Of a stretch of DNA of 64,000 nucleotides, positions 53,712 through 54,729 are shown in pieces. The translations under genes and the position numbers were made by a program. Every line of letters starts with the position of its first letter. Position 1 is the first letter of the stretch. Under the pieces are notes generated by a model that was not told the DNA's origin, searched no databases, and saw nothing but the letters and a program-made list of their open reading frames with translations. This stretch comes from a phage, in the sequence record PZ543597.1; one strand, given 5' to 3'.

Positions 53712-53784
53712 TGGGAATTAGCCAAGTTGGTAAGGCACTGGATTTTGATTCCAGGATGCAAAGGTTCGAGTCCTTTATTCCCAG
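53712..53784 (+). tRNA. tRNA-Gln (anticodon UUG)
   Basis: acceptor TGGGAAT/ATTCCCA, anticodon loop tTTTGAt, T-loop GGTTCGAGTCC. Confidence 0.85.
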
Positions 53785-53785
53785 C

Positions 53786-53872
53786 GCGAGAATGGCCAAA
53801 TTGGTAAAGGCACAGCACTTAAAATGCTGCGGAATGATTTCCTTGTGGGTTCGAGTCCCACTTCTCGCACCA
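53786..53872 (+). tRNA. tRNA-Leu (anticodon UAA), type II, CCA encoded
   Basis: acceptor GCGAGAA/TTCTCGC, anticodon loop CTTAAAA, long variable arm, 3' ACCA. Confidence 0.85.
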
Positions 53873-53877
53873 AATTT

Positions 53878-53951
53878 GCGGATATCGTATAATGGTATTA
53901 CCTCAGACTTCCAATCTGATGATGTGAGTTCGATTCTCATTATCCGCTCCA
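53878..53951 (+). tRNA. tRNA-Gly (anticodon UCC), CCA encoded
   Basis: acceptor GCGGATA/TATCCGC, anticodon loop CTTCCAA. Confidence 0.85.
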
Positions 53952-53961
53952 ATTTAATTTA

Positions 53962-54035
53962 CTCCGTGTAGCTCAGTTTGGTAGAGCGTCTGCTTTGGGA
54001 GCAGAATGTCGTAGGTTCAAATCCTGCCACGGAGA
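53962..54035 (+). tRNA. tRNA-Pro (anticodon UGG)
   Basis: acceptor CTCCGTG/CACGGAG, anticodon loop TTTGGGA, T-loop GGTTCAAATCC. Confidence 0.85.
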
Positions 54036-54037
54036 CT

Positions 54038-54127
54038 GGAGGCGTGGCAGAGTGGTTTAATGCACCGGTCTTGAAAATCGGCAGTCGCTCCGGCGACTCA
54101 TAGGTTCAAATCCTATCGCCTCCGCCA
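54038..54127 (+). tRNA. tRNA-Ser (anticodon UGA), type II, CCA encoded
   Basis: acceptor GGAGGCG/CGCCTCC, anticodon loop CTTGAAA, long variable arm. Confidence 0.85.
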
Positions 54128-54132
54128 GTTTT

Positions 54133-54208
54133 GCTGATTTAGCTCAGTAGGTAGAGCAACTCACTTGTAATGAGAAGGTCGGCGGTTCGATTCCGTCAAT
54201 CAGCACCA
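54133..54208 (+). tRNA. tRNA-Thr (anticodon UGU), CCA encoded
   Basis: acceptor GCTGATT/AATCAGC, anticodon loop CTTGTAA. Confidence 0.85.
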
Positions 54209-54209
54209 A

Positions 54210-54284
54210 GGCCCTGTAGCTGGAAGGTTCAAGCAAGCGACTCATAATCGCCAGATGGTGGTTCAATTCCACCCAGGGCCACCA
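54210..54284 (+). tRNA. tRNA with CAU anticodon (Ile via lysidine, or Met), CCA encoded
   Basis: acceptor GGCCCTG/CAGGGCC, anticodon loop CTCATAA. Confidence 0.8.
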
Positions 54285-54293
54285 AATTAATTT

Positions 54294-54380
54294 GGGGAGT
54301 TATCCCGTAGAGGTAGCGGTGTGGACTGTAAATCCATTGTCATTGCGACTCGGGTGGTTCGACTCCACCACTCCCCACCA
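54294..54380 (+). tRNA. tRNA-Tyr (anticodon GUA), type II, CCA encoded
   Basis: acceptor GGGGAGT/ACTCCCC, anticodon loop CTGTAAA, long variable arm. Confidence 0.8.
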
Positions 54381-54384
54381 ATTT

Positions 54385-54459
54385 GGATGTGTAGCTCAAT
54401 GGCAGAGCGATCGCCTGTTAAGCGATTGGTTATAGGTTCGAATCCTATCACGTCCGCCA
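54385..54459 (+). tRNA. tRNA-Asn (anticodon GUU), CCA encoded
   Basis: acceptor GGATGTG/CACGTCC, anticodon loop CTGTTAA, T-loop GGTTCGAATCC. Confidence 0.8.
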
Positions 54460-54573
54460 AATTTGTGACAACTGTCACATTAATATCTACTTGACGCGAT
54501 TATAGGGGTTGAACTGATCACTCTTCTCTTAATTTCGTGTGAAGACATCTTGATTGTTGGAGTAGGTATTAAT

Positions 54574-54649
54574 GTGGCCGTAGTTCAGTTGGTAGAACTC
54601 GAGATTGTGATTCTCGTAGTCATGGGTTCGACTCCCATCGGTCACCCCA
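54574..54649 (+). tRNA. tRNA-His (anticodon GUG), CCA encoded
   Basis: acceptor GTGGCCG/CGGTCAC, anticodon stem CGAGA/TCTCG with loop TTGTGAT, discriminator C. Confidence 0.75.
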
Positions 54650-54653
54650 ATTA

Positions 54654-54729
54654 CGGGGCATAGCTCAGAAGGAAGAGCAAGGACCTTCTAAGTCCTAGGT
54701 CGTAGGTTCGATCCCTACTGCCTCGACCA
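54654..54729 (+). tRNA. tRNA-Arg (anticodon UCU), CCA encoded
   Basis: acceptor CGGGGCA/TGCCTCG, anticodon loop CTTCTAA, T-loop GGTTCGATCC. Confidence 0.85.

Follow-up and report, generated by a model that had tools for sequence, protein, structure and literature searches.

Why should a T4-like phage carry eleven transfer RNA (tRNA) genes where T4 carries eight, and what accounts for the additional ones? The question is posed by a 64,000-nucleotide stretch of phage DNA (sequence record PZ543597.1), referred to here as the window, in which ARAGORN calls exactly 11 tRNA genes, all on the + strand and all within 53712-54729. From 5' to 3' they are Gln-UUG, Leu-UAA, Gly-UCC, Pro-UGG, Ser-UGA, Thr-UGU, a tRNA with anticodon CAU, Tyr-GUA, Asn-GUU, His-GUG, and Arg-UCU. 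The Rfam tRNA model independently matches 11 of the 11 genes, each at or above its gathering score; ten score between 59 and 74 bits, while the weakest, Tyr, reaches 30.3 bits against a threshold of 29. An original prediction, made from the sequence alone, had listed eleven tRNAs with these identities, and both programs agree with it on number, order, and anticodons. It had also described most genes as encoding CCA, which applies to 9/11, the exceptions being Gln and Pro. The T4 annotation (NC_000866) comprises eight tRNAs together with rnaC and rnaD, in line with the eight tRNAs and two stable RNAs attributed to T4 beforehand. Thus, at 11 genes to 8, the cluster is larger than that of T4, which does not carry the same eleven. 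The extra genes are Tyr, Asn, and His; all three are called by ARAGORN and matched by the Rfam tRNA model (Asn 74.1, His 65.1, and Tyr 30.3 bits), Tyr and Asn following the CAU tRNA and His preceding Arg, as foreseen.

Our answer, which we hold with good confidence, is that the cluster represents a T2-type, segB-free form of the T-even tRNA locus that has gained a structured RNA and tRNA-His by insertion, and that its content would reflect codon supply and backup against host defence as well as the exchange of gene blocks between phages. The features on which this account draws are the following:

53712-53785, + strand: tRNA-Gln (UUG), no encoded CCA; ARAGORN, Rfam 67.4 bits; 89% identical to T4
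53786-53872, + strand: tRNA-Leu (UAA); ARAGORN, Rfam; 99% identical to T4
53878-53951, + strand: tRNA-Gly (UCC); ARAGORN, Rfam; 100% identical to T4
53962-54036, + strand: tRNA-Pro (UGG), no encoded CCA; ARAGORN, Rfam; 85% identical to T4
54038-54127, + strand: tRNA-Ser (UGA), class II; ARAGORN, Rfam; 99% identical to T4 and T2
54133-54208, + strand: tRNA-Thr (UGU); ARAGORN, Rfam; 96% identical to T4; T2 has no Thr gene here
54210-54284, + strand: CAU tRNA, most likely tRNA-Ile2; ARAGORN, Rfam; 100% identical to T2, 65% to T4 tRNA-Ile
54294-54380, + strand: tRNA-Tyr (GUA), phage-type class II; ARAGORN, Rfam; 99% identical to T6, 98% to T2
54385-54459, + strand: tRNA-Asn (GUU); ARAGORN, Rfam; 100% identical to T2
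54464-54479, + strand: palindrome TGTGACAACTGTCACA, 6-bp RNA hairpin; left junction of the inserted module
54478-54573, + strand: conserved structured RNA of ~96 nt; folding, covariation, cross-genus conservation
54574-54649, + strand: tRNA-His (GUG) with C73, encoded CCA, and T at position -1 (54573); ARAGORN, Rfam
54654-54729, + strand: tRNA-Arg (UCU), T2-type allele; ARAGORN, Rfam; 97% identical to T2, 70% to T4
54748-55098, + strand: open reading frame (ORF) of 116 aa between tRNA-Arg and rnaD; PHROG 3355; in T2, absent from T4
55098-55210, + strand: homologue of rnaD (T4 "species 2" stable RNA); 79% identical to T4 rnaD
55217-55355, + strand: homologue of rnaC (T4 "species 1" stable RNA) with tRNA-like T arm; 99% identical to T4 rnaC
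55406-55437, + strand: terminator-like hairpin and T run; 10-bp stem with 7 G-C pairs, then TTTTT

We mapped the T4 features onto the window and compared segB, the tRNAs, and the flanks with T4, T2 (MH751506), and T6 (MH550421). The flanks are T4-like: homologues of trna.2, e.8, e.7, and e.6 are 94-96% identical to their T4 counterparts, and the cluster lies between trna.2 and e.8 on the same strand. From Gln to Thr, the T4 order is kept with 85-100% identity gene by gene. T4 segB, tRNA-Ile, and tRNA-Arg, in contrast, have no blastn match in the window. CAU, Tyr, Asn, and Arg are 100%, 98%, 100%, and 97% identical to the T2 genes, whereas CAU and Arg reach only 65% and 70% against T4, the CAU gene sharing sequence with T4 tRNA-Ile in its first 12 nt only before diverging. 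The transcription order in T4 is Gln-Leu-Gly-Pro-Ser-Thr-Ile-[segB]-Arg-rnaD-rnaC; T2 is laid out as Gln-Leu-Gly-Pro-Ser-[trna.1 ORF]-CAU-Tyr-Asn-Arg-[116-aa ORF], with Asn abutting Arg, and T6 as Gln-Leu-Gly-Thr-CAU-Tyr-segB. Relative to T2, the window carries an insert of ~190 bp between the terminal CCAAAT of Asn and the initial TACGGGG of Arg. Since CAU, Tyr, Asn, and Arg match T2, CAU and Arg match T4 poorly, and segB is absent, sequence comparison identifies the locus as the Tequatrovirus tRNA/stable-RNA locus in a T2-type, segB-free allele, supplemented by Thr and the ~190-bp insert. The idea that the T4 stable RNAs sit at the place of Tyr and Asn is wrong; in T4, rnaD and rnaC follow Arg and segB occupies that place, and both RNAs are also present here.

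Such segB-less tRNA regions have been described for T2L, RB1, and RB3 (Brok-Volchanskaya et al, 2008; PMC2330249). The site favoured by SegB lies in the 3' part of the T2L tRNA-Asn gene (GGTTCRANTCC, cut after CCAR), and in T4 × T2L crosses a T2L block of ~1250 bp with tRNA-Met(CAU), Tyr, Asn, and Arg gets replaced (PMC2330249). The tRNA-Asn gene of the window carries the preferred site context, with GGTTCGAATCC at 54435-54445 and CCAA at 54457-54460. Because this gene is identical to that of T2 and the motifs are present, the phage should be a target of SegB.

The CAU tRNA could in principle be an Ile or a Met acceptor. Its acceptor stem, GGCCCTG/CAGGGCC, contains the pairs C4-G69 and C5-G68, which Ikeuchi and colleagues reportedly described in 2005 as TilS determinants that set tRNA-Ile2 apart from tRNA-Met. 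In E. coli, the gene matches best to an annotated tRNA-Ile (81.6% identity over the full length), and ATA codons are 3.4-fold enriched in the phage compared to E. coli. Owing to these acceptor pairs, the E. coli match, and the ATA enrichment, the gene most likely encodes an AUA-reading, lysidine-type tRNA-Ile2, as in T4.

To what extent does codon demand explain the set? We compared 64 phage ORFs (18,865 codons) with 44 ORFs from a 50-kb stretch of E. coli, both obtained by the same long-ORF method. The A-ending codons of the eight T4-type tRNAs are used 1.65- to 5.6-fold more in the phage than in the host (AGA 5.6, TCA 3.6, ATA 3.4). Further, TAT is enriched 2.26-fold and AAT 2.92-fold, and Tyr (1.64-fold) and Asn (1.62-fold) are the second and third most enriched amino acids. 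The most enriched one, Lys (1.79-fold), has no phage tRNA, yet a tRNA is present for His, the most depleted amino acid (0.57-fold; CAT 0.69-fold, CAC 0.39-fold). The suggestion that the extra tRNAs reflect codon-usage adaptation thus holds for Tyr and Asn and fails for His, for which codon demand is ruled out as a cause.

The second explanation offered at the outset, evasion of host anticodon nucleases, likewise applies to a part of the set: it is published for a near-identical relative of the Tyr gene and plausible for Asn, while for His only trace AriB cleavage products speak to it. The tRNA-Tyr of T6, which T4 lacks, counters Septu (Chihara et al, PMC13096335), the cut site being the variable loop and not the anticodon. 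The window copy is 99% identical to this gene and differs from it in one base, located in the anticodon stem. Moreover, retron-Eco7 immunity is overcome by supplied phage tRNA-Tyr (Azam et al, 2024; PMC11555353). The host tRNA-Tyr is only 71% identical to that of the window, and blastn with the latter gave no match on any E. coli chromosome; on E. coli plasmids, it found ~270 with copies at 93% identity. In the one plasmid copy examined, the gene belongs to an Asn-Tyr-Thr-Ser cluster adjoining DNA ligase, PhoH, and integrase genes, and by this gene content the plasmid is probably a phage-plasmid. Separately, rV5-like phages match the first ~96 nt of the Tyr-Asn query, which comprise most of Tyr and a few upstream bases, at ~96% identity.

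PARIS/AriB cleaves tRNA-Lys, tRNA-Thr, and tRNA-Asn at 40|41; the cut adjoins U36-A-A-U39, and the exchange U39→A abolishes cleavage of tRNA-Lys (PMC12409363). In the window tRNA-Asn, the anticodon arm reads U36-A-A-G39-C-G; it lacks U39 and differs from the host at position 39. The arm of tRNA-Thr reads U36-A-A-U-G40-A41. Because PARIS/AriB cleaves the host tRNA-Asn and the window copy lacks U39, evasion of this nuclease by tRNA-Asn is plausible from its sequence. A related pattern occurs in tRNA-Gln (53712-53784): 8/8 differences from T4 lie in the anticodon arm (pairs 27/43, 28/42, and 30/40, and loop positions 32 and 38), while the acceptor, D, and T arms are identical. Such a distribution would be expected if anticodon arms were under diversifying pressure. 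The differences between tRNA-Pro and its T4 counterpart resemble those of Gln and are less exclusive to the anticodon arm.

This leaves tRNA-His, the gene beyond a codon-usage explanation. In 7/7 distinct copies from T4-like phages, T at -1 is kept together with C73, whereas E. coli hisR has G at this position; the annotated tRNA-His of T5 likewise begins with T at -1. The G-1:C73 pair is the main identity element for bacterial HisRS (PMC9976931). For want of G-1, and with the phage's low demand for His codons, the gene might be no working His acceptor at all, being a pseudo-tRNA or a decoy for a tRNA-binding host factor. We regard this as very unlikely, as C73, the GUG anticodon, and the full cloverleaf are conserved and the T5 annotation starts the tRNA at T-1, so that the extra 5' nucleotide may be retained. 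In addition, a GenBank note on T5 states that anticodon replacement turns its tRNA-His into an effective amber suppressor, which implies aminoacylation; by analogy with T5, such a U-1 tRNA-His can be aminoacylated. As a tRNA-His without the canonical G-1, like that of T5, it is a possible seed for experiments. A second tRNA-His(gtg) gene annotated in phage JLBYU22 (OK272484; positions 429-505 of locus L026) is a tRNA-Asn gene in which ARAGORN reads the anticodon GTT, and two tRNA-His genes in this phage are hence an annotation error.

What, then, was inserted together with tRNA-His? The 114-nt gap between tRNA-Asn and tRNA-His (54460-54573) folds with a minimum free energy of -32.7 kcal/mol (z = -4.4 relative to shuffled controls), and a second single-sequence fold of the element it contains gives z = -3.4. 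The fold is a three-way junction: positions 54478-92 pair with 54560-74 in a 15-bp terminal helix, inside which lie a long hairpin (54494-54540) and, at 54544-54558, a 4-bp hairpin with a 7-nt loop. The element is matched by blastn in 356 phage records, ~198 of which hold Tequatrovirus-level copies of at least 90% identity. Karamvirus and other Enterobacter T4-like phages, Jiaodavirus, Gelderlandvirus, and four rV5-like phages carry it at 78-88% identity; in the rV5-like phage W70 it lies between tRNA-Gly and tRNA-Gln. Element and tRNA-His are separable, because Tequatrovirus REP3 retains the element at 95% identity without tRNA-His, a different tRNA-Arg allele following ~10 nt further (locus L021, 1523-1707), and Kanagawavirus IME523 has tRNA-His without the element.

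A consensus fold of 12 distinct sequences was compared with controls in which the pairing partners were slid by 1-3 columns and with 500 shuffles. Paired cells amount to 94.2%, as opposed to 36-52% in the slid controls. Changes on both sides affect eight pairs, compared with 0-3 under sliding, a number matched in 5/500 shuffles, and the covariation score of 0.268 (0.139 in shuffles) is reached by 0/500. Pairing is complete (100%) in the 9-bp core helix, which has four covarying pairs, and in the small hairpin, which has two. Invariant G-U pairs show that the folding strand is the + strand. Conservation across genera extends to the inner hairpins and to a 24-nt apical segment; the apical loop occurs in two variants, distinguished by their palindromic hexamer, UGAUCA or UCAUGA. 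When a covariance model derived from the alignment was run on the window and on T4, T2, and T6, its only match was a single copy in the window, so that homology of the element to T4 rnaC or rnaD is rejected.

Several further identities were considered for the gap and dismissed. ARAGORN makes no call in it, and the isolated region gives no match to the tRNA model even at E ≤ 10, which speaks against a decayed tRNA. A promoter is equally unsupported: the + strand contains no sigma-70-like site, and the sole match, on the - strand, is within chance expectation. Rfam returned nothing at the gathering score and at E ≤ 10 only spurious microRNA and long non-coding RNA matches of at most 13 bits, leaving no credible link to a known ribozyme, riboswitch, or small RNA. 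A pattern scan of IMG/VR for distant members gave only close relatives and chance matches; candidate loci L011, L012, and L014 were not confirmed by the model. Mimicry of the 16S rRNA 3' end by the apical loop, suggested by eye from a shared GAUCAC and a pyrimidine run, was discarded, as the loop lacks the CCUCC core and its second variant shows no resemblance. At the left junction, TGTGACAACTGTCACA is a perfect palindrome, TGTGA-N6-TCACA, that resembles a CRP core site; only its 3' half is common to the copies in other genera.

The element could be a mere processing spacer, its helix guiding RNase III or RNase P, or a decayed tRNA gene, in either case without a function of the RNA product. 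Its invariable location inside tRNA clusters, 0-10 nt from the next tRNA, is consistent with this, as is the terminal helix of 15-20 bp, which can reach into the first bases of the downstream tRNA: GUCAC (54474-54478) can pair with GUGGC of tRNA-His (54574-54578), extending the helix by 4-5 bp. We speculate that such an extension would compete with the acceptor stem in the precursor and could influence 5' processing. The helix could be lengthened likewise in Karamvirus, Gelderlandvirus, Jiaodavirus, and W70, in the last case with tRNA-Gln. Nevertheless, we consider a spacer or tRNA remnant possible but doubtful, given the lack of any tRNA-model or ARAGORN signal even at E ≤ 10, the conserved inner hairpins and apical segment and the covariation in 2/4 pairs of the small hairpin, all needless for a spacer helix, the retention of the element in REP3 where His is lost, and the annotated stable RNA, rnaIII, at the same position in T5. 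What we propose, tentatively and with slightly more reserve than conviction, is that the gap may encode a functional RNA rather than a spacer, belonging to an undescribed family of structured small RNAs confined to phage tRNA clusters. This family would move among Tequatrovirus, Karamvirus, Jiaodavirus, Gelderlandvirus, and a few rV5-like phages, usually together with a U-1 tRNA-His, mirroring T5 RNAIII. Our best guess, by analogy with T4 rnaC/rnaD and T5 RNAI/RNAIII, is that RNase P, in cutting at the 5' end of the downstream tRNA, sets the RNA free as a stable small RNA. If so, it could control maturation of the atypical tRNA-His or act on a host factor.

Taken together, these observations would fit the following course of events. 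The run from Gln to Thr is the portion common to T4, and CAU(Ile2)-Tyr-Asn, together with Arg, is the T2 allele in the place where T4 has a different Ile gene, segB, and a different Arg gene. Between Asn and Arg, a module of ~190 bp, consisting of the 96-nt structured RNA and tRNA-His, is inserted; after Arg come the ORF, rnaD, rnaC, and the terminator. As judged from T4 biology, the genes would be co-transcribed in the + direction, the tRNAs excised by host RNase P and 3'-processing enzymes, with the structured RNA probably freed at the same time, and CCA added to Gln and Pro by a host enzyme. The eight T4-type tRNAs read codons ending in A, which are used 1.7-5.6 times more in the AT-rich phage than in E. 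coli, and Tyr and Asn serve amino acids used ~1.6 times more than in the host. Tyr and Asn would also back up tRNAs destroyed by defence nucleases, with Septu and retron-Eco7 acting on tRNA-Tyr and PARIS on tRNA-Asn and tRNA-Thr. As for tRNA-His, it most likely came in with the structured RNA module, either as its passenger or as its partner. Differences in content among T-even phages would arise from SegB-type homing and recombination at tRNA 3' ends, by which blocks are swapped.

Two simpler explanations each capture a part of this picture. All eleven tRNAs might only match the AT-rich codon and amino-acid usage, without any role in counter-defence, and the enrichment of every A-ending codon read by a T4-type tRNA, along with that of TAT and AAT and of Tyr and Asn as amino acids, agrees with this. 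We nonetheless rate pure translational supplementation as unlikely: it leaves the supply of His and the omission of Lys at odds with demand, an effect against Septu has been demonstrated for the T6 orthologue of the Tyr gene (PMC13096335), and the confinement of the Gln differences to the anticodon arm is not explained by supply alone. Alternatively, the extra tRNAs, and His in particular, could be passengers of block exchange by homing endonucleases and recombination that confer no benefit. The content indeed varies among close relatives, with 8 tRNAs in T4, 9 in T2, another set in T6, 10 in REP3 (element present, His absent), and 11 here; moreover, the junctions of the insert lie at tRNA 3' ends (CCAAAT and CCCAAT), where SegB cuts (PMC2330249). 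Such neutral mosaicism appears quite unlikely in view of the 11-gene form being kept at ≥99% identity in ~175 independent isolates from several host genera, and of a tRNA-His cloverleaf that is maintained across genera with its changed T-stems still paired. We thus prefer the combined account of codon supply, defence backup, and block exchange.

Some observations nevertheless weigh against the combined account. The codon baseline is small, with 50 kb from E. coli and 64 kb from the phage, and uses ORFs of at least 100 codons. The role in defence evasion is carried over by analogy from T6 and T5 orthologues, and Septu also cleaves phage tRNA-Tyr, so that rescue by T6 needed a higher dosage through segB-promoted amplification (PMC13096335); segB, which promotes this amplification of Tyr in T6, is absent at the present locus. 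The tRNA-His has no encoded G-1, a major identity element for E. coli HisRS (PMC9976931), so that its charging efficiency is uncertain. Finally, a promoter-motif scan found no strong promoter consensus directly upstream of the cluster.

Downstream of tRNA-Arg, the T4 stable RNAs are kept, rnaD at 55098-55210 (79% identity) and rnaC at 55217-55355 (99%); the rnaC homologue folds with z = -4.6 and contains CCGGGUUCGAAUCCCGG. They are preceded by the 116-aa ORF (54748-55098, + strand; PHROG 3355), which lies inside the RNA gene cluster and is the same ORF as that of T2. A Pfam search of the ORFs embedded in and flanking the cluster gave nothing above threshold. The hairpin and T run at 55406-55437 likely mark the end of the tRNA/stable-RNA transcription unit, as judged from their sequence. 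Between rnaC and e.8, where T4 has nothing, two + strand ORFs (55482-55955 and 56081-56644) both belong to PHROG 2280. Their N-termini, MKSYTQFLNEA and MKTYAEFLTEA, resemble the MKTYQEFIAE of an internal-virion-protein ORF at 52437-52682, and the two ORFs probably encode polymorphic capsid-targeted internal proteins.

How widespread is this arrangement? At least 20 deposited genomes of Tequatrovirus match the 1.7 kb around the cluster at 99.9% identity; they include Yersinia phage fPS-65, in which the same eleven tRNAs are annotated, and Escherichia phages G29, YUEEL01, and HP3; 255 records cover at least 80% of this locus. The segment from Tyr through Asn and the spacer to His is covered to at least 80% in 187 records, and many more hold Tyr-Asn only. 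Consequently, the eleven-gene cluster is a common and already annotated allele of the T-even tRNA locus and not a discovery in itself. The variable tRNA content of T-even phages, the T2-type Tyr/Asn allele, the SegB-driven exchange of the block, and the anti-defence value of the Tyr gene have all been published. What seems to be undescribed is limited to the RNA with covariation support upstream of tRNA-His and to the T that this tRNA, like its T5 counterpart, has at -1. As a whole, the locus offers a compact natural example of three forces that shape phage tRNA sets, namely codon demand, tRNA-targeting immunity, and homing endonucleases.

Among the closest known systems, T2/T2L shares with the window the flanks, Gln-Leu-Gly-Pro-Ser, the CAU-Tyr-Asn-Arg block (97-100%), the 116-aa ORF after Arg, and the absence of segB. 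T2 differs in having the trna.1 ORF where the window and T4 have tRNA-Thr, and in passing directly from Asn to Arg without the 96-nt RNA and His. With T4, the window has in common the synteny from trna.2 to e.8, six tRNAs, rnaC, and rnaD, but T4 carries segB between Ile and Arg and lacks Tyr, Asn, His, the structured element, and an ORF between Arg and rnaD. In T6, the tRNA-Tyr gene is 99% identical to that of the window, has an identical variable arm, and is also placed after the CAU tRNA; T6, however, lacks Pro, Ser, Asn, and His at the locus, and segB adjoins Tyr and drives its amplification, while the window has no segB here.

A further parallel is T5, whose tRNA-Tyr acts against retron-Eco7 (PMC11555353) and whose tRNA-Lys, tRNA-Thr, and tRNA-Asn act against PARIS (PMC12409363). 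The window has the same isoacceptors Tyr-GUA, Asn-GUU, and Thr-UGU; it differs from the T5-type anti-PARIS set in lacking tRNA-Lys, and its tRNA-Tyr is of the T6 type, a substrate of Septu that acts by dosage. T5 also provides the nearest likeness to the structured element. The RNA annotated in GenBank AY543070 as "RNAIII, stable RNA with unknown functions" is 106 nt long and abuts the 5' end of the T5 tRNA-His with T at -1. It comprises a 14-bp helix formed by its own ends, internal hairpins, and a 4-bp hairpin just before the 3' strand, and is thus similar to the element in position and shape. Homology is not detectable, the covariance model scoring RNAIII at 8.3 bits (E = 6.8); blastn with T5 rnaIII finds only T5-like phages, all copies at least 95% identical, and no bridging relatives. 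T5 RNAIII is hence an analogue of the element in position and shape only, and the covariation-supported RNA described here may belong with the long-unexplained stable RNAs of T4 (rnaC and rnaD) and T5 (RNAI and RNAIII).

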